This document shows, piece by piece, positions 53,639 through 64,000 of a stretch of DNA of 64,000 nucleotides (position 1 is the first letter of the stretch; each line of letters begins with the position of its first letter). Both the position numbers and the translations under genes were made by a program. This DNA is from a candidate division FCPU426 bacterium. GTDB taxonomy: Bacteria; Oederibacteriota; Muellerivitia; Muellerivitales; Muellerivitaceae. The stretch lies in contig CAVYSE010000026.1 of assembly GCA_963771075.1 (NCBI GenBank), forward strand, positions 80,687 through 144,686, written 5' to 3'. Below the pieces are notes generated by a model. The model was not told the origin of the DNA. It saw only the letters and a list, made by a program, of their open reading frames with translations, and made no database searches.

Positions 53639-53703
53639 TGTCCGCGATGGGTCCCCGCCATGTAGCATGCGCTTGCGCTTAGCTACATGGCCCGCCGTGG
53701 ACA
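53639..53703. repeat. Cassette-boundary site C (65-bp long form)
   Basis: TGTCCGCGATGGGTCCCC-GCCATGTAGCATGCGCTTGCGCTTAGCTACATGGC-CCGCCGTGGACA. Confidence 0.92.
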
Positions 53704-53724: not shown

Positions 53725-54060
53725 TTACCCTAACTGTAGGAGAGAAGAAACTTTATCGACCACCGCTTGAAGCGTTTCCGGCGACACTTTCCCTTTGTAG
53801 ACGGCTTTTCGTTCTTTCCAATCTAAATTCTTTAAATGGTCTGAAAGCACTACTCCATGAACGGAACCAGAGATAAGCGCCACTTCGAAGGGGTACCCCT
53901 TCACTTGGGATGTAATGGGGCACATGACCGCCAAGCCCGTCTTTCGGTTGTATTCTTTGGGTGATAAAACCAAGGCAGGCCGTTGCCCCGCCTGTTCACG
54001 CCCTGCTTGCGGGGCGAAATTGAGCCAAACCACATCACCACGATCCGGGGTATAGTCCAT
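53725..54060 (-). CDS. mazF: MazF endoribonuclease toxin
   Basis: PDRGDVVWLNF-PQAGREQAGQRPALVLSP and CPITSQVKGYPFEV. Confidence 0.93.
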   Translation of the reverse strand: MDYTPDRGDVVWLNFAPQAGREQAGQRPALVLSPKEYNRKTGLAVMCPITSQVKGYPFEVALISGSVHGVVLSDHLKNLDWKERKAVYKGKVSPETLQAVVDKVSSLLQLG

Positions 54061-55204: not shown

Positions 55205-55269
55205 TGTCCAATCCGGGACCCCGCCATGTAACATGCGCTTTCGCTTAGCTACATGGCCCGTCGTGGTCA
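55205..55269. repeat. Cassette-boundary site E (65-bp long form)
   Basis: TGTCCAATCCGGGACCCC-GCCATGTAACATGCGCTTTCGCTTAGCTACATGGC-CCGTCGTGGTCA. Confidence 0.88.
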
Positions 55270-55515: not shown

Positions 55516-55827
55516 CTATAAGCCTAACGCGAAATGGATGGCCTGCCGTACCTCATTCATTTTGGAGGCGGGCAAGGCCGTGATGAGCCCGCCCAATTTC
55601 GCCTTAGAGATTGTCTGGATATGGTCGCAGTTCACTGCGCAATCTTTCCCGAGTCCCTCATGGGGTCCCACCGACACCTCGCTAGGAATATTCCGGATGG
55701 TAGAGGTCAGAGGCGCGACGGTTACTTCGCCCAAATATTCAAGGATGGAGTTTCGCGTGAGGATCAAAACCGGCCGTTTCTTATCAGGATGGGTGAACTT
55801 ATACCAGCGAATTTCCCCCCGCTTCAT
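55516..55827 (-). CDS. PemK/MazF-family toxin
   Basis: MKRGEIRWY...DKKRPVLILTR and VTVAPLTSTIR. Confidence 0.9.
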   Translation of the reverse strand: MKRGEIRWYKFTHPDKKRPVLILTRNSILEYLGEVTVAPLTSTIRNIPSEVSVGPHEGLGKDCAVNCDHIQTISKAKLGGLITALPASKMNEVRQAIHFALGL

Positions 55828-56224: not shown

Positions 56225-56854
56225 TCATTCCGGAATTCCCCAATTATTAAATAGTTCCGTATCTCTTTTGTGGAGTGTGCACTTTTTAATGGTGATGGCG
56301 GGCATTGAAATTAAACGGTCCGAAACTTTGGCCAGGAAATCATCCCTCTTGGAATAGACCTCCCAAGAACGCCCATCCTCGCAGAAAAAGCAGACCTCGG
56401 AATGCTTTTGGATCAGGTCATAGTATAAGTTCCGTGTGGCCGGGGCGAACGCCTGGAATAATGCCAAGGCCAATGGCTTGAAAGTACTCTCGGGCCCGGG
56501 GAGACCGATGAGGTCAAGGCTATCATCCCTCAGATACTTGGCGTGTTTTGGAAGGATGCCGCATTTCATTCCGCAGGCCCCTCCATTCTCAAATTCCGGG
56601 ATCGAAATGGAGTATTTGCCATGCTCTTCCATGCCGCCAGGCACATAGGTCAAGTCTACAAAGGGAGTGGATTGGAAGGCGTGCGCGAACCAATAGTATG
56701 GTTGGAGGTCGGGGAGAATGGTTTCAAAGAAATACTCAAAGGCCCTCCGCCCCGCGGGAACACCGAAAACCCTTTTTTTGTCGGCTTCGACGGCGGATTT
56801 GGACCCGAAGGAATGGATGCCGGGATTTTCAAATTTAATATAAAGACCATTCAT
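56225..56854 (-). CDS. Hypothetical protein (cassette)
   Basis: Single ORF filling the interval between sites H and G. Confidence 0.65.
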   Translation of the reverse strand: MNGLYIKFENPGIHSFGSKSAVEADKKRVFGVPAGRRAFEYFFETILPDLQPYYWFAHAFQSTPFVDLTYVPGGMEEHGKYSISIPEFENGGACGMKCGILPKHAKYLRDDSLDLIGLPGPESTFKPLALALFQAFAPATRNLYYDLIQKHSEVCFFCEDGRSWEVYSKRDDFLAKVSDRLISMPAITIKKCTLHKRDTELFNNWGIPE

Positions 56855-56876
56855 CGCTTACCATCCAATATTTCGT

Positions 56877-56928
56877 TGTCCGCGATCCCTGCCCCAAGCC
56901 GGGGGCTTGGGGCTCCCCATTGTGGACA
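56877..56928. repeat. Cassette-boundary site H (52 bp, different inner hairpin)
   Basis: TGTCCGCGAT-CCCT-GCCCCAAGCC-GG-GGGCTTGGGGC-TCCCC-ATTGTGGACA. Confidence 0.85.
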
Positions 56929-56996
56929 ACGATTTCAGGGGAACTCCCCCATCCCTCACGACAGCTAATTTAGGGAATGATTAACCAGTTAGCCGC

Positions 56997-57593
56997 CTAT
57001 TCACCAATAGTACCTGTCTTGACTTTTCCAGCTCGCTTGTAATTGGCAATAATCACTCCACTTGGCGTAACAATGCTCTCTATTAATGTAAACGTTGTCG
57101 GAGCCGCGCCACTTTCAAACAATTTTTTCCCTTTACCAAGGGTCAAAGGGAAAATCTTGAGCCTGAGTTCGTCCACTAAATCATTCTTAAGTAGTAGCTG
57201 AATAAGTTTACTGCTGCCCCAAACTTGAATGTCAAAACCTTCCGAATTTTTGACCTTTTTGATATCCGCCAAGCTTTTGAAGAATACTGTGTTTTTCCAT
57301 TCTGACTTTTTCACGGTCTTGGACAGGACGTATTTTGTGCCATCATTGATACCAGGCCAAATGTCCGCGTGTTTAGGCCAGAAAGAGGACCACATCGCAA
57401 ACGTTTTTCTGCCCAAAAGATAATCCGCGGTTTGTTTCAACTCTTTTTGCACCACCGCATTACCGACTTCGTCACCATACGGCGCACTCCAACCGCCATA
57501 TTTGAAACCCCCTGATTTATCTTCCTGGGGACCACCTTGTGCTTGCATGACTCCATCTAATGTAATCATTGATAAGACGATTATCTTTCTCAT
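56997..57593 (-). CDS. Dihydrofolate reductase-like / RibD C-terminal family protein (cassette)
   Basis: MRKIIVLSMITLDGVMQ, LLGRKTF, IQVWGSSKLIQ and PLTLGKGKKLF. Confidence 0.88.
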   Translation of the reverse strand: MRKIIVLSMITLDGVMQAQGGPQEDKSGGFKYGGWSAPYGDEVGNAVVQKELKQTADYLLGRKTFAMWSSFWPKHADIWPGINDGTKYVLSKTVKKSEWKNTVFFKSLADIKKVKNSEGFDIQVWGSSKLIQLLLKNDLVDELRLKIFPLTLGKGKKLFESGAAPTTFTLIESIVTPSGVIIANYKRAGKVKTGTIGE

Positions 57594-57634
57594 GTATTTA
57601 CACCTTCAAAGTTTAATGCCTATGACGTTTTAGG

Positions 57635-57662
57635 TGTCCGCGATGGGTCCCCATCATGGACA
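57635..57662. repeat. Cassette-boundary site I (28 bp)
   Basis: TGTCCGCGATG-GGTCCC-CATCATGGACA. Confidence 0.9.
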
Positions 57663-57681
57663 AGCGTTAATCAAGAATCAC

Positions 57682-58521
57682 CTAATTTGTAAATGTGACC
57701 GCATGGTTGAAAACATTCTTAAACGTAGAATTAACTAAAGGTTTCGAGGGATCTACTTGATCAACATCGTAATAACGATAGATGATCTGATTTTGCCTCT
57801 TTTCTATCTCTGCATATCCCCAGGGATGAGCCGTGGCAAAATCAAATTTCAACAATGTTTTGGTTGATGTCATTTGATCCAACGAACGGAAAAATACGAA
57901 ATCTTTTTTATTCAATGTTTTTTTCATCTTAAAGAGCATCAATACATACCGTTCAAGAAACGCCTTTTCCACAGAGACTTCTGCTCCATTGTCCGTAGTC
58001 TGGCCATACACCATCCAAATATTTCTTGCCTTTTTGATCAATTTCTCAGGATCGGTAATTTTCTCTAAAGGATATTTTTCAACGAGTCTAAGAGAATCAC
58101 GCCAACTGCATCGGAGGGCACGATATTTATGTTCGTGGGTTCTCTTCAAATATAATACCCACTGACTGATATCGGTTCGATCAATCGTAAAAGAAAATAG
58201 AATCGTAGTAGCGTCTGGATCCGAAAAATCTGATATGTCTATTTCTGCCTCAGTATTGGCCGGATTTAAAACCCCCCGGAAGTCTTGGGTCTTAAATAAT
58301 TGCCGTACAGGTATTACCCCAATTTTTTTTACCTCTAAGGTCGCATTTGAAAAATAGTCAAAAGAAATGATTAAATCTGCTTGATCGAATGCTTGAATGA
58401 TTGGAAGACCATAACTTTTATGTGGAGTTGGCATCATTAAAGAAGGCTGTGCGAATAAAAGGGCTGAACATAAAAAGTAACCGGTTGCCAATAGGATCAT
58501 TTTTGATAAACCAATATTCAT
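57682..58521 (-). CDS. Hypothetical secreted protein (AT-rich cassette)
   Basis: Signal peptide, GAGG RBS; fills the interval between sites J and I. Confidence 0.7.
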   Translation of the reverse strand: MNIGLSKMILLATGYFLCSALLFAQPSLMMPTPHKSYGLPIIQAFDQADLIISFDYFSNATLEVKKIGVIPVRQLFKTQDFRGVLNPANTEAEIDISDFSDPDATTILFSFTIDRTDISQWVLYLKRTHEHKYRALRCSWRDSLRLVEKYPLEKITDPEKLIKKARNIWMVYGQTTDNGAEVSVEKAFLERYVLMLFKMKKTLNKKDFVFFRSLDQMTSTKTLLKFDFATAHPWGYAEIEKRQNQIIYRYYDVDQVDPSKPLVNSTFKNVFNHAVTFTN

Positions 58522-58546
58522 TTATGCCTCACATAACATTTTTACC

Positions 58547-59008
58547 TTATTTACTAAAAACCATGTCCACGATGGGTCCCCGTCGTGGACAACCATGAAC
58601 TATCAAAAATCCGTTACCACCATTTTCCGGGTTGCTTATTTTCGTTAAACTGACCCAAGCATTCATTTCGAGACTGATATAGGTCGCAACCGCATCAATT
58701 GAACTTTTAAATGTTAATTCATGGCCCAGATTCGGTTTGGGATCTTTGATGCCATATCCAGTGATCCGATAATATCCATCCTGCCCCCAACTGCTGAATG
58801 TCCACCCAAAATCCGTTCGTTTGTCTGACCACCCAATCCATTTATCTATTAAATCCTTGTGGCCTTCTAAATATTCTTTGAAGTCTTCAACACAAATGTT
58901 CTTCCGGTGGTCCATAAATCCGGATTCTTTTAAATAATCTTGAATCGATTTGTCCGATATGAGGGGGTACCGGCATATCGTTTGGGCGATTTCTTTCAAA
59001 TCTTCCAT
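58547..59008 (-). CDS. Hypothetical protein (cassette); reading frame runs through site J
   Basis: GGGGGA RBS before ATG at 59008. Confidence 0.6.
   Translation of the reverse strand: MEDLKEIAQTICRYPLISDKSIQDYLKESGFMDHRKNICVEDFKEYLEGHKDLIDKWIGWSDKRTDFGWTFSSWGQDGYYRITGYGIKDPKPNLGHELTFKSSIDAVATYISLEMNAWVSLTKISNPENGGNGFLIVHGCPRRGPIVDMVFSK
58564..58591. repeat. Cassette-boundary site J (28-bp consensus)
   Basis: TGTCCACGATG-GGTCCC-CGTCGTGGACA. Confidence 0.95.
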
Positions 59009-59060
59009 TTTTTATCCCCCCAGGTCATGTTGACCAACCCCCAGCTGAGCCAATTTTACC

Positions 59061-59088
59061 TGTCCACGATGGGTCCCCGTCGTGGACA
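59061..59088. repeat. Cassette-boundary site K (28-bp consensus)
   Basis: Identical to site J. Confidence 0.95.
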
Positions 59089-59120
59089 ACCACTTACCAC
59101 ATTTAAAACCATTCCTGAAA

Positions 59121-59806
59121 TTATCCCATCCCAAGGTCTTTTACAAAATTTGCATCATCCTTAAATTTTTTAACCCCTAATTGATCAGCAATGATTCTTC
59201 TAACTACTGTTCTCACCTCACCAGGTCTCCATGCCTTAACTTTCATCCTAATCTTTTCGGGTGCTTTCTAACGATATAACTGACAATATCTTCAACACGT
59301 TTCACTTCCGAAATTAAAAACGAATTTCTTGGGTACTTGTTGGTCAAAATAAAGCCAATAACAATAGCTCCAATTGCGCAAAACAGACTCCAAGCAATAC
59401 TCCTGGCTCGATAATAAGTGAAAGCAAAAATGGTTGCCGAAAGAAACCATAGTGTCACCTGAAGCCAGACAGGCCTAGCCAGTTTTGGAAACGTAGATAA
59501 CCCCATTTTTTTCTGCCAAGAACTCCAAAATTCAATGCGATTTTTTTTAGGAACTATTTCTCTAAGAAGAGACTTTGGGCGAAACATTGCCCTTGGAATC
59601 GTCTCCAATTTCATGAAAGAATTTCGGCATAAATGAAAGGCTTTTTGGGACAAACACCGTTCGTCACCTTCCTCGATGTTGATCTTTGAAGCAACAAGGT
59701 CAATAAGGATTCTTGGCGTTGAACACTTCATAGCCTCCTCGTCTGATATCGAAATTTTAAAAACATCTTCGACTTGTAAGATAATTTCCAATCCATCCAA
59801 TCCCAC
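59121..59806 (-). CDS. Membrane protein with acyl-carrier-like termini (cassette; frameshift near 59255)
   Basis: N-terminus MGLDGLEIILQVEDVFKISISDEEA; one added A continues the frame into ...IIADQLGVKKFKDDANFVKDLGMG*. Confidence 0.65.
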
Positions 59807-59849
59807 TTATGCCTCCCAATATTAGACTGCGATTTCTTCGCTTTTATCC

Positions 59850-59877
59850 TGTCCACGATGGGTCCCCGTCGTGGACA
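59850..59877. repeat. Cassette-boundary site L (28-bp consensus)
   Basis: Identical to sites J and K; immediately followed by the intron-like sequence. Confidence 0.95.
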
Positions 59878-60364
59878 TCGTGCCAGCGAAGGTTTGTAGA
59901 GCCAGCAGGTGAGGGAGTAGGCCGAAGAGGGCCAGCCCAAATCCTGACCAGGTAATCGCCAGAGAGCCTGGAAGTCAGCCCCCGGCGTAGGACCGAGAGG
60001 TTCTGCCCGAAACGGGGTCATAAACCTCATTCAGTGAGGGAACAATCTAGCAGTCCGCAACATCAAGTGAATCCTGCCGCGTCGTGAATGGGACACCGAA
60101 AGGTGCAAGAGGATGCCGAGCCGCGTGTCTACCGGCGAAGGCCACGATCCCGCTGAAGAATCTGGAGCAAGCGGGGCAAGTCCTCCGGCGTATGGGGAAC
60201 GGAATGCTGGAAAGGCTTTGCAAGCAACCTGGGAGATCCTACCCACCAAAAGACTTGCCGCTATAAGGCTAAAACCGAAAGGGGCAAGGGCGGGAGGAAT
60301 TCGGAGGGGGTCACAATACCTGTGAAGGGTGGACAACAAAACCACCTGGGAGGGAGAGGGACCC
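59878..60364 (+). mobile_element. Group II intron (IIB-like), 5' part covering domains I-III, truncated by the fold-back
   Basis: Start (TC)GTGCCAGCG, GTGAATCCTGC, GCCGAGCC-loop-GGCGAAGGC, AACCTGGGAGATCCT and the D2/D3-like TCGGAGGGGGTCACAATACC...GGAGGGAGAGGGACCC. No RT ORF or domain V is visible. Confidence 0.72.
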
Positions 60365-63300
60365 CCTCCGACTTTCCTCCCGCCCTTGCCCCTTTTCGGT
60401 TTTAGCCTTATAGCGGCAAGTCTTTTGGCGGGTACTCTCCTGGTTGCTTGCAAACCCTTTTTCCAGCATTCCGTTCCCCATACGCCCGGAGGACTTGCCC
60501 CGCTTGCTCCAGATATTCTTCAGCGGGATCGTGGCCCTCGGCCAGGTAGACACGCGGCTCGGCATCCTCTTGCCACCTTTCGGTGTCCCGCAGATTTCAC
60601 TTGATTTTGCGGAGCTCTAGATTGTTCCCTCACTGAATGAGGTTTATGACCCCGTTTCGGGCAGAACCTCTCGGCCTCCTACGCCGGGGGCTGACTTCCA
60701 GGCTCTCTGGCAAACTCAGATTGGGCTGGCCCTCTTCGGCCTACTCCCTCACCTGCTGGCTCTACAAACCTTCCGCTGGCACGATGTCCACGACGGGGAG
60801 CCCATCGTGGACAGGATAAAAGCGAAGAAATCAGCAGTCTAATATTGGGAGACATAAGTATGATCATAGATGAGTTGGAAATTATCTTACAAGTCGAAGA
60901 TGTTTTTAAAATTTGGTAATCAGACGAGGAGGCTATGAAGTGTTCAACGCCAAGAATCCTTATTGACCTTGTTGCTTCCAGGATTCAACATCGAGGAAGG
61001 TGACGAACGGTGTTTGTCCCAAAAAGCCTTTCATTTATGCCGAAATTCTTTCATGAAATTGGAGACGATTCCAAGGGCAATGTTTCGCCCAAAGTTCTTG
61101 AGAAATGGTTCCCTAAAAAAAATCGCATTGAATTTTGGAGTTCTTTGGCAGGGAAAAATCGGGGTTATCTACGTTTTTCCAAAACTGGCTAGGCCTGTCT
61201 GGCTTCAGGTGACACTATGGTTTCTTTCGGCAACCATTTTTGCTTTCACTTATTATCGAGCCAGGAGTATTGCTTGGAGCATCTGTTTTGCGCAATTGGA
61301 GACTGTGTTACTGGCTTTATTTTGACCAACAAGTACCCAAGAAATTCGTTTTTAATTTCAAAAGTGAAACGTGTTGAGAAGATATTGTCAGTTATATCGT
61401 TCAAAGTACAAAAAAGATTAGGATGAAAGTTAAGGCATGGAGACCTGCTGGTGAGGTGAGAACAGTAGTTAGAAGAATCATTGCTGATCAATTAGGGGTT
61501 AAAAAATTTAAGGATGATGCAAATTTTGTAAAAGACCTTGGGATGGGATAATTTCAGGAAATGGTTTTAAATGTGGTAAGTGGTTGTCCACGACAAGAAT
61601 ACATCGTGGACAGGTAAAATTGGCTCAGCTGAGGGGGTTGGTCAACGGACCTGGGGGATAAAAAATGGAAGATTTGAAAGAAATCGCCCAAACGATATGC
61701 GGTACCCCCTCATATCGGACAAATCGATTCAAGATTATTTAAAAGAATCCAGATTTATGGAGAAGCCGGAAGAAACATTGCTGTTGAAGACTTCAAAGAA
61801 TATTTAGAAGGCCACAAGGATTTAATAGATAAATGGATTGGGTGGTCAGACAAACGAACGGAGTTTTGGGTGGACATTCAGCAGTTGGGGGCAGGATGGA
61901 TATTATCGGATCACTGGATATGGCATCAAAGATCCCAACCAAATAATAAATTAACATTTAAAAGTTCAATTGATGCGGTTGCGACCTCTGTGAGTTCTCG
62001 AAATGAATGCTTGGGCTCAGTTTAACGAAAATAAGCAACCCGGAAAATGGTGGTAACGGATTTTTGATAGTTCATGGTTGTCCACGACGGGGACCCATCG
62101 TGGACATGGTTTTTAGTAAATAAGGTAAAAATGTTATGTGAGGCATAAATGAATATTGGTTTATCAAAAATGATCCTATTGGCAACCGGTTACTTTTTAT
62201 GTTCAGCCCTTTTATTCGCACAGCCTTCTTTAATGATGCCAACTCCACATAAAAGTTATGGTCTTCCAATCATTCAAGCATTCGATCAAGCAGATTTAAT
62301 CATTTCTTTTGACTATTTTTCAAATGCGACCTTAGAGGTAAAAAAAATTGGGGTAATACCTGTACGGCAATTATTTAAGACCCAAGACTTCCGGGGGGTT
62401 TTAAATCCGGCCAATACTGAGGCAGAAATAGACATATCAGATTTTTCGGATCCAGACGCTACTACGATTCTATTTTCTTTTACGATTGATCGAACCGATA
62501 TCAGTCAGTGGGTATTATATTTGAAGAGAACCCACGAACATAAATATCGTGCCCTCCGATGCAGTTGGCGTGATTCTCTTAGACTCGTTGAAAAATATCC
62601 TTTAGAGAAAATTACCGATCCTGAGAAATTGATCAAAAAGGCAAGAAATATTTGGATGGTGTATGGCCAGACTACGGACAATGGAGCAGAAGTCTCTGTG
62701 GAAAAGGCGTTTCTTGAACGGTATGTATTGATGCTCTTTAAGATGAAAAAAACATTGAATAAAAAAGATTTCGTATTTTTCCGTTCGTTGGATCAAATGA
62801 CATCAACCAAAACATTGTTGAAATTTGATTTTGCCACGGCTCATCCCTGGGGATATGCAGAGATAGAAAAGAGGCAAAATCAGATCATCTATCGTTATTA
62901 CGATGTTGATCAAGTAGATCCCTCGAAACCTTTAGTTAATTCTACGTTTAAGAATGTTTTCAACCATGCGGTCACATTTACAAATTAGGTGATTCTTGAT
63001 TAACGCTTGTCCATGATGGGGACCCATCGCGGACACCTAAAACGTCATAGGCATTAAACTTTGAAGGTGTAAATACATGAGAAAAATAATCGTCTTATCA
63101 TTTATTACATTAGATGGAGTAATGCAGGCGCCGGTGGCCCCCAGGAAGATACATCAGGCGGGTTTCAAATACGGCGGTTGGAGTGCACCTTATTGTGACA
63201 AAGTCTGGCAATGAGGTGATGCAAAAACAAATGAAACAAACTGCAGATTATCTTTTGGGCAGAAAAACGTTTGAGATTTGTGCCACCTACTGGCCAACAT

Positions 63301-64000
63301 GCGGACTTTGGCCGGGCATCAATAATGTCACAAAATACGTCCTGTCCAAAACCATGAAAAAGTCAGATTGGAAAAATTCGGTTTTCCTCAAAAGTCTGGC
63401 AGATATCAAAAAGCTCAAAAATTCAAAAGGTGCTGACATTCAAGTTTGGGGCAGTAGTAAGCTTATTCAGCTGCTACTTAAGAATGATTTAGTGGACGAA
63501 CTCTGGCTCAAAATTTTCCCGTTGACGCTTGGTAAAGGGAAAAAATTGTTTGACAATGGCGCGATTCCGGCAGCATTTAAATTAATAGAGAGTTCTGTTA
63601 CGCCAAGCGGAATGATTATTGCCAATTACAAACGGGCTGGAAAAGTTAAGACAGGTACTATTGGTGAATAGGCGGCTAACTGGTTAATCATTCCCTAAAT
63701 TAGCTGTCGTGAGGGATGGGGGAGTTCCCCTGAAATCGTTGTCCACAATGGGGAGCCCCAAGCCCCCGGCTTGGGGCAGGGATCGCGGACAACGAAATAT
63801 TGGATGGTAAGCGATGAATGGTCTTTATATTAAATTTGAAAATCCCGGCATCCATTCCTTCGGGTCCAAATCCGCCGTCGAAGCCGACAAAAAAAGGGTT
63901 TTCGGTGTTCCCGCGGGGCGGAGGGCCTTTGAGTATTTCTTTGAAACCATTCTCCCCGACCTCCAACCATACTATTGGTTCGCGCACGCCTTCCAATCCA
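60360..64000. other. Inverted copy of ~56670-60312 (probable fold-back chimera)
   Basis: Mirror coordinates sum to ~120670 (57682/62988, 58521/62149, 56997/63671); 60.4-62.05 kb is full of indels relative to the first copy. Confidence 0.9.

Follow-up and report, generated by a model that had tools for sequence, protein, structure and literature searches.

The window analysed here is a stretch of 64,000 nucleotides (nt) from a candidate division FCPU426 bacterium of the family Muellerivitaceae (assembly GCA_963771075.1, contig CAVYSE010000026.1, hereafter C26, positions 80,687 to 144,686). Close to its end it carries the first part of a 1,980-nt group II intron, directly after a 28-nt palindromic repeat that separates small gene cassettes. 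I predict, with high confidence, that this intron homes into the right arm of the repeat by ordinary base pairing, namely 7 base pairs (bp) between exon-binding site 1 (EBS1) and intron-binding site 1 (IBS1), and 5 bp between EBS2 and IBS2.

The identity of the element is confirmed. In the window, nt 1–486 of the intron (domain I and what follows) span 59878–60365 on the plus strand, at 99% identity to nine full-length copies in the same genome, and stop ∼40 nt short of the first ATG of its reverse transcriptase (RT) gene, at intron nt 527. At the gathering threshold of Rfam, RF02003 (group-II-D1D4-4) matches 59929–60065 (+) with 60.9 bits against a cut-off of 49 (E = 6.7e-11), and on a full copy (L007, 3336–3452) the domain V/VI model RF00029 scores 41.2 bits against 40. 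An earlier reading, made from the letters of the window (the sequence-only reading), had placed a group II intron directly after the site and proposed covariance models as a check; both matches agree with it, and all its coordinates were right, for the site (59850–59877), for TGTCTAC (60126–60132), for ATGGG (60088–60092) and for a 5′ end TCGTG at 59878. The full intron and its RT, whose recovery it had also proposed, were obtained from the same genome.

In domain I, the alpha sequence CCAGA (59959–59963, +) occupies the loop of a CCAGG/CCTGG hairpin and alpha′ TCTGG (60161–60165, +) the terminal loop of a CCCGCT/AGCGGG hairpin. Covariation supports both: over 14 rows the variable middle pair is AU in seven, UA in five and CG in two, the hairpin bearing alpha′ is 100% paired with 4 covarying pairs, and the hairpins flanking alpha–alpha′ covary, giving the domain I architecture of a group II intron. 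Domain V, at intron nt 1837–1870, reads AGCCGUAUGAUC-GAAAA-GGUCACGUACGGUU, with the AGC triad, the 2-nt bulge and a 5-nt loop GAAAA, and is followed by a domain VI with a GAG/CUC base and a bulged A 7–8 nt from the 3′ end, kept in relatives as judged by eye. The GAAAA loop is also found in L010, L011, L022 and L012, and the 17 more distant relatives in which domain V was found all have a five-base loop, GAAAA in 15 and GAGAA in two (L170, L171). The open reading frame (ORF) starting at nt 527 encodes 432 amino acids (1,299 nt with the stop codon), and the intron without it measures 681 nt. By Pfam the protein has RVT_1 (1.1e-38) and GIIM (2.1e-14) and no other domain, no endonuclease domain being detected; the YADD motif is present, and the chain ends 21 residues past GIIM. 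The closest solved structures are group II RTs, 7uim (2.5e-65) and 6ar1 (2.8e-64), and the intron has an RT with a maturase (X) domain within domain IV, as mobile group II introns do.

Twelve copies of the intron are found in its own genome, besides a fold-back mirror treated below. Ten are full length, nine of them matching the reference copy at 99.7–99.9% identity and the one at the end of contig C4 at 99.3%; the RT genes of all ten are stop-free and 100% identical. One of the remaining two is internally deleted (contig C2), and the other is the truncated copy of the window. Every one of the 12 starts with TCGTGCC immediately after the right arm of a site, reading GTGGACA in nine cases, GTAGACA in two and GTGGACG in one, as the sequence-only reading had anticipated when it asked whether other copies also sit after GTGGACA of this repeat. 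The flanks upstream of the occupied sites are unrelated to one another. All ten full copies end in ...GCGCTCTACTCTGCA (...CTCTGCA) and diverge thereafter, with 3′ flanks that resemble neither each other nor the site. These copies show that the intron has proliferated recently, with its RT genes intact.

The internally deleted copy (G000:C2, ∼57300–58050, minus strand, near 58050) is 93% identical and lacks nt 599–1810, almost exactly the RT gene. It keeps domains I–III and V–VI and lies at the same spot of a site, and may be an ORF-less derivative that relies on the RT of the other copies.

The proposed pairing partners lie on the plus strand on both sides of the 5′ junction. IBS2 (CCCGT, 59865–59869) occupies positions −13 to −9 of the 5′ exon and IBS1 (GTGGACA, 59871–59877) positions −7 to −1, while EBS2 is ATGGG (60088–60092) and EBS1 is TGTCTAC (60126–60132), in the loop of a GCCG/CGGC stem. 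As RNA, EBS1 UGUCUAC pairs with GUGGACA through one G-U and with GUAGACA perfectly, and EBS2 AUGGG pairs at −13 to −9 with CCCAU or CCCGU. The sequence-only reading had proposed both loops from the window, and both covary with the 5′ exons of relatives. Searches that used the RT and the first 491 nt of the intron as queries supplied the relatives; 27 of the 45 junctions collected form the covariation set, exact duplicates having been dropped and L013, L066, L074, L081 and L085 left out, where the EBS region is missing or misaligned. Over these 27 junctions the four helices considered are jointly 91.9% paired, against 29–40% when the partner is slid by 1–3 columns, and 14 of their 20 pairs change on both sides. 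For IBS1–EBS1, 97.9% of cells are paired and six of seven pairs vary on both sides; IBS2–EBS2 is 74.1% paired, and 11 of the 12 pairs of IBS1 and IBS2 together vary on both sides.

EBS2 is hypervariable within a conserved region and matches each relative's own exon, a second subfamily described below apart. Thus in L065 (G011) the pairs are UGUCUAU:AUGGGCA for EBS1:IBS1 and ACACC:GGUGU for EBS2:IBS2, in L067 (G004) UUCAUGC:GCAUGGG and GAGAG:CUCUC, and in L012 (G035) UGCCA:UGGCA and AAUGU:ACAUU. L093 and L096 (G044) have the EBS1:IBS1 of the window with AAGGG:CCCUU for EBS2:IBS2, and L069 (G020) has UGUCCAA:UUGGACA and an EBS2 unmatched at −13 to −9. The loops thereby complement the final ∼13 bases of the 5′ exon, as in mobile group II introns generally.

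The 5′ part of the intron was matched in 8 of the 31 family genomes searched. Among 34 junctions in eight other genomes, 28 follow a site-like right arm, one is within a site that has degenerated, and the remaining five occupy other targets, each matched in sequence by the EBS loops of its intron. Homologues at unrelated targets with another EBS1 loop had been named by the sequence-only reading as evidence that would tell against it; those found (L067, L012, L013, L110/L111, L065) differ in both EBS1 and EBS2, match their own exons, and so lend it support. In a sister genus of the same family (G044) all 17 near-identical copies, 92–98% identical over the first 300 nt of the intron, follow the same right arm, and six of them (L102, L103, L104, L105, L107, L108) have no left arm. 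More distant RT relatives (46–57% identity) are spread over many phyla.

Some of these loci have further peculiarities. L102, L103, L104 and L108 share 45 nt upstream that contain only the right half of the site, and this half-site seems to be part of another repeated element. At G044:C11:107397-112100 three introns (L109, L094, L095), one of them from the second subfamily, lie within 4.7 kb, each behind its own site; since two of the starts are 1,709 nt apart, at least one of these introns is shorter than 1,980 nt. At L014/L073 (G021:C42) a 5′ RNA part 76–81% like the window intron lies in a site, with an RT of only 43% identity containing one TAG; a swapped, nested or decayed intron would be a possible explanation.

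The ends of the intron are not those of the group II consensus GUGYG...AY: it starts with UCGUG and finishes with (U)GCA. The sequence-only reading had noted that its pairing implies a non-canonical 5′ end, and the alignment bears this out. Because the columns of UCGUG hold GUGUG in L067 and L068, GCGUG in nine junctions, GCGCG in L012 and UCGCG in L013, UCGUG is best read as a drifted GUGYG and not as a misplaced boundary. Half-sites that fit both IBS motifs number 126 in the genome, where base composition alone would give ∼16; 12 are occupied and 114 empty, and TC belongs to the intron, because it follows only one of the 114 empty ones. Given these observations I give very little credence to an intron with canonical ends, starting two bases in at GUGCC and finishing at ...CCACCGUACUCUAA (nt 1952), with the extra 2 + 28 nt moving along as exon. 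The GUG at nt 3–5 does resemble a 5′ end, and the RF00029 alignment closes domain VI at nt 1952, on a UAC...AA motif. However, the unit common to all copies is 1,980 nt long, IBS1 would come to lie 2 nt off the splice site, and the GUGUG of L067 and L068 stands in the exact columns of UCGUG. L010 and L011 moreover lack the inner UACUCUAA motif, whereas compensatory changes preserve the outer stem, which by eye makes up the entire domain VI in short-loop Paenibacillus relatives. By comparison with these relatives the shorter domain VI of Rfam was rejected. As judged by eye among relatives, the conserved domain VI consists of GAG/CUC, the bulged A and a ∼10-bp stem with compensatory changes, and closes 4 nt short of the mobile unit's end. 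Paenibacillus-type relatives, which end in ...ACUCUAC, have a few-base loop on this stem, whereas the intron described here bears a ∼75-nt insert there. A comparison with the 3′ extension past domain VI of the B.c.I4 type (Bacillus cereus) was dropped, the extra sequence lying inside domain VI.

The nature of the target raises another possibility, that of a class C intron, similar to those on integron attC sites, which would read the folded hairpin of the repeat with a short IBS1 only. The repeat is indeed a strong hairpin-forming palindrome between cassettes, the RT has no endonuclease domain, its best matches among solved structures are class IIC RTs, and IIC introns are the known attC specialists (PMC4424553). 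Nevertheless this possibility, now very unlikely, is already largely refuted: EBS2 is present and covaries, EBS1 pairs over 7 bp rather than 3–4, and insertion is at the end of the 3′ arm and not downstream of a hairpin. Recognition of a DNA stem-loop, as in class C, is at odds with the six G044 copies whose targets have the right arm only, and with the five relatives (L067, L012, L013, L110, L111) at non-palindromic targets fitting their own EBS loops. A domain V loop of 5 nt and an alpha′ in a terminal loop are traits of lineages E and F. IIC-attC introns lie antisense to cassette genes (PMC7923331), whereas seven of the eight copies that follow one of the two strand forms of the site, the GA form described below, are downstream of a same-sense ORF. 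It is likewise scarcely credible that the intron does not retrohome and was moved as a cassette, or part of one, by a cassette recombinase. Its copies do lie in cassette arrays beside a recombination-like site, and they are nearly identical; but no second site follows the 3′ end of the intron, where the ten flanks are unrelated, and the boundary is exact to the base in all 12 copies. The occupied sites also differ (TC or GA centre; CCCAT, CCCGT or CCCTT; GTAGACA) although the introns are 99.3–99.9% identical, and carriage as a cassette leaves the EBS–IBS covariation unexplained.

Several points weigh against homing into the right arm through both pairings, or against the boundaries that it implies. 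The rows of the covariation set are related and hand-chosen, and the finding that the observed values on five measures were reached by none of 500 shuffles is not to be taken as a probability. A second subfamily (L109, L068, L069, L072, L073, L080) sits in the same site with an EBS2 that is unpaired at −13 to −9, which is why IBS2–EBS2 is only 74.1% paired; the only fit for its EBS2, GAGUCC, is in a shifted register, −17 to −12, where one mismatch remains. In L110 and L111, cousins of this subfamily whose target is non-palindromic, GUGUC pairs with GACAC. The U at position 1 and the C/G at the penultimate position depart from the consensus ends, and the conserved terminal nucleotides of group II introns are commonly taken as important for catalysis. 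GUGYG...AY is a consensus and not absolute, 5′-UUGCG..GU-3′ ends having been reported (PMC7923331). The last base of the intron is ambiguous: its final A could be a strictly selected first exon base (IBS3), and an A stands at the first position after the site in 56% of empty sites, while the bases that follow weakly favour it as the last base of the intron. Neither an empty paralogue nor an empty orthologue of an occupied site, which would fix the boundaries directly, was found; a search of the own genome for nine occupied loci returned no empty paralogous site, and for the window cassette a search of 30 family genomes matched only the 28-nt site itself. Finally, contigs of four metatranscriptome libraries (X14, X15, X17, X18; three studies) match parts of the intron, but no exon–exon joint was seen in these RNA-library contigs, which cannot show ends and may reflect DNA carry-over.

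By homing through EBS1 and EBS2, a spliced lariat with its bound RT would reverse-splice into a DNA strand carrying ...CCCRUCGUGGACA (IBS2-N-IBS1). Because the RT has no endonuclease domain, cDNA would be primed from nascent strands at replication forks, as for RmInt1. Both steps are drawn from what is described for group II introns (PMC12584367, PMC5894124), and splicing and retrohoming activity itself is predicted from twelve near-identical copies with intact RT genes. Targeting would not require the left arm, nor therefore the hairpin. As the repeat is a palindrome, the same target would be offered on both strands and entry would be possible in either orientation. Both inverted repeats of ISRm17 serve RmInt2 as targets, which ensures that the lagging-strand template always carries one of them (PMC5894124), and by analogy the both-strand target of the palindrome may confer the advantage proposed for RmInt2.

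The two strands of the palindrome differ only in their central two bases, TC or GA. Four of the 12 copies follow the TC form and eight the GA form, and the intron thus inserts in either orientation. Upstream of seven of the eight GA-form copies a same-sense ORF ends 33–73 nt away (from crude ORF calls), and the eighth is at a contig end, where the upstream sequence is unreadable; these eight copies probably have the same orientation as the genes next to them. The window copy, after the TC form, is antisense to the neighbouring ORFs, as the sequence-only reading had described, but antisense insertion does not hold as a rule. As a gauge of strand bias relative to replication, GC skew on the intron strand, over ±50 kb with introns and mirror masked, is positive at five loci, negative at two and about zero at one, and is confounded by gene orientation.

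The site itself, TGTCCACGATGGGTCCCCGTCGTGGACA (59850–59877), whose last base the intron abuts, is a near-perfect palindrome that recurs in the window between small minus-strand ORFs from 52954 onward. It has ∼93 copies in the genome, clustered and on 14 contigs, and is found in 23 of 31 family genomes (own genome included; 22 of the 30 others) and 11 of 17 genera. The sequence-only reading had suggested from the intron that the site is abundant and conserved, and these counts agree with it; the intron is an independent marker of a site that is abundant, conserved and old in this bacterial family. Long variants of 52–65 nt with the same ends, TGTCCRC...GYGGACA, occur at 53639–53703, 55205–55269 and 56877–56928, and carry an extra inner hairpin somewhat resembling the variable centre of attC sites.

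ORFs near the window intron (59243–59806, 58547–59008, 57682–58521 and others) are on the minus strand. The cassettes of the array encode OmdA, two PemK/MazF-type toxins (53725–54060 and 55516–55827, −), a RibD_C protein and proteins without Pfam match. The site was tried as an integron site and rejected: no IntI integrase was detected with the TIGR02249 model in the own genome, which is 96.7% complete, the best score being 41.8 bits against a cut-off of 265. A repetitive extragenic palindrome (REP) with its associated transposase (RAYT) was rejected as well. The site does not directly flank any of the 20 Y1_Tnp matches in the own genome; from match to nearest site the distance is 661 to ∼197,000 nt, and seven matches lie on contigs without any site. 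Y1 transposase genes of the IS200/IS605 type are numerous in this genome (20 places), and several are identical copies.

Beyond the intron the window folds back on itself. Positions 60360–64000, which reach the end of both the window and contig C26, are a reverse-complement image of 56668–60313, with arms 83–100% complementary and many small indels. By local alignment to a full copy, the forward intron reaches nt 486 at 60365 and its reverse complement restarts at nt 436 at 60360, with six shared bases, GACCCC, at the junction (60360–60365; forward intron nt 481–486, reverse nt 436–431). Then follow an error-ridden mirror of intron nt 1–436 and the site (60360–60813, −; 89% identity to the forward arm, with indels), and a mirror of the cassette array 56668–59849 up to the contig end (60814–64000). 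The segment 60360–60813 is probably an assembly artefact rather than a second intron, and the fold-back as a whole is very probably an artefact that arose at a contig end inside a 12-copy repeat. There is a small chance that the fold-back exists in the genome, as a long inverted duplication of the array with its centre in the intron: palindromes and template switching do give rise to such duplications, 6 nt of microhomology are present at the junction, and the arms are 99–100% alike in parts. Yet its position is the very end of a contig, within a 12-copy repeat, and the second arm is indel-rich and just 83–94% like the first in places. The intron part of the first arm is 99% identical to nine full copies, whereas that of the second is 89%. 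In DNA contigs of two public runs the intron moreover continues normally past 60349 and none bridges the turn; no more than 26% of the sampled words of window 58900–60420 occurred in these runs, which show no sign of being the source sample. ORFs and sites of the mirror (for example 62149–62988 and 63183–63671) repeat genuine ones of the opposite strand and are best left out of any count. Two contigs end in or at an intron copy, C4 (G000:C4, 76208–76688) and C26. The 2-kb, 12-copy intron breaks this assembly, and the practical lesson is that it breaks assemblies of these genomes, with a probable fold-back artefact at this contig end.

As to class, the presence of EBS2 and of a 7-bp EBS1 pairing indicates that the intron is not of class C, which has no EBS2 and a short IBS1 of 3–4 bp, and whose introns lie antisense to cassette genes, as the eight of 12 copies here that follow the GA form probably do not. 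Classes IIE and IIF are characterised by the absence of an endonuclease, IIB-like exon recognition, a 5-nt domain V loop, an alpha′ at a stem-loop tip in DId3 and a length of 450–700 nt without the ORF (PMC3753933). The intron shares with them the RT without endonuclease, the IIB-like exon recognition, the 5-nt loop, alpha′ at a stem-loop tip and, at 681 nt, the length without the ORF, and is E/F-like by these traits; it may belong to E, to F or to a sister lineage. The RT matches among solved structures are IIC (2.5e-65), IIB (2.4e-50) and IIA (1.4e-47), in a set that holds no E/F RT.

Known repeat and cassette-site specialists among group II introns are class C, hairpin-reading and with little base pairing, and a IIB-like intron here reaches the repeat-specialist lifestyle by the ordinary EBS1/EBS2 route, a case of convergent evolution toward a safe multi-copy target. 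The system offers a natural series of compensatory EBS/IBS variants and, judged by its recent proliferation, a working example of a non-GUGYG 5′ end. A broader picture, which I consider improbable, is that an E/F-like endonuclease-less lineage has co-diversified with a family-wide, non-integron cassette system, its palindrome chosen for offering a target on both strands (one always on the lagging-strand template), with the EBS2 variants AUGGG, AAGGG and ACGGA matched to site variants and the RT possibly making or spreading cassettes. If this were true, the RT of the intron and its position at the cassette boundary could help to make and spread cassettes, as proposed for IIC-attC introns and integron cassettes.

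Literature precedents include class C introns at terminators and attC sites, introns homing in insertion sequences (IS), and IIB1 introns at start or stop codons; two of nine intron copies in Pseudomonas putida are near REPs, according to a table row of PMC1525189. The literature searched yielded no account of a IIB-like intron that uses EBS1/EBS2 pairing to multiply at a single nucleotide within a short palindromic repeat between cassettes. The closest parallel in lifestyle is provided by the IIC-attC introns (S.ma.I2 and relatives), which are also endonuclease-less and multiply in arrays, on a multi-copy, imperfectly palindromic cassette site (PMC4424553, PMC3001079). They differ in being class C, in having no EBS2 and a short IBS1, and in recognising a folded DNA stem-loop (PMC4424553); they insert into the bottom strand of attC, antisense to cassettes, at sites of IntI integrons. 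In contrast, the present intron would use a 7-bp EBS1 and a 5-bp EBS2 pairing on the right-arm sequence, in either orientation, at a 28-nt site that is not an attC. The likeness to attC-specialised introns drawn by the sequence-only reading holds functionally, but it does not extend to class, given EBS2 and the 7-bp EBS1.

In RNA type, the closest known parallels are the IIE/IIF introns (Cl.be.I2, Pe.th.I2, Ge.ur.I1-1), likewise without endonuclease and with an IIB-like RNA in which EBS1 and EBS2 pair just upstream of the splice site (PMC3753933). As far as that account goes, those studied have canonical GUGYG ends and no repeat-specialised target is reported, whereas the present intron starts with UCGUG, has a domain VI ∼75 nt larger and resides in a palindromic repeat. 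RmInt1 and RmInt2 of Sinorhizobium meliloti (class D) are also endonuclease-less and home by EBS–IBS pairing into multi-copy mobile elements, ISRm2011-2 and ISRm17 (PMC5894124), but their targets are IS elements rather than a 28-nt intergenic palindrome, and their RT belongs to another lineage. Lastly, the halophile IIB introns beside attC (UHB.I2, class CL1; H.ha.F1 and F2, class E) share with the present intron a non-IIC type, a position directly behind a cassette site, cassette orientation (UHB.I2), non-canonical ends (5′-UUGCG..GU-3′), and arrays rich in toxin–antitoxin genes with no neighbouring integrase (PMC7923331). That account describes single or truncated copies and shows no conserved exon pairing for them, whereas the intron described here is found in dozens of copies across several genera, at one nucleotide of its site and with covarying EBS1 and EBS2.

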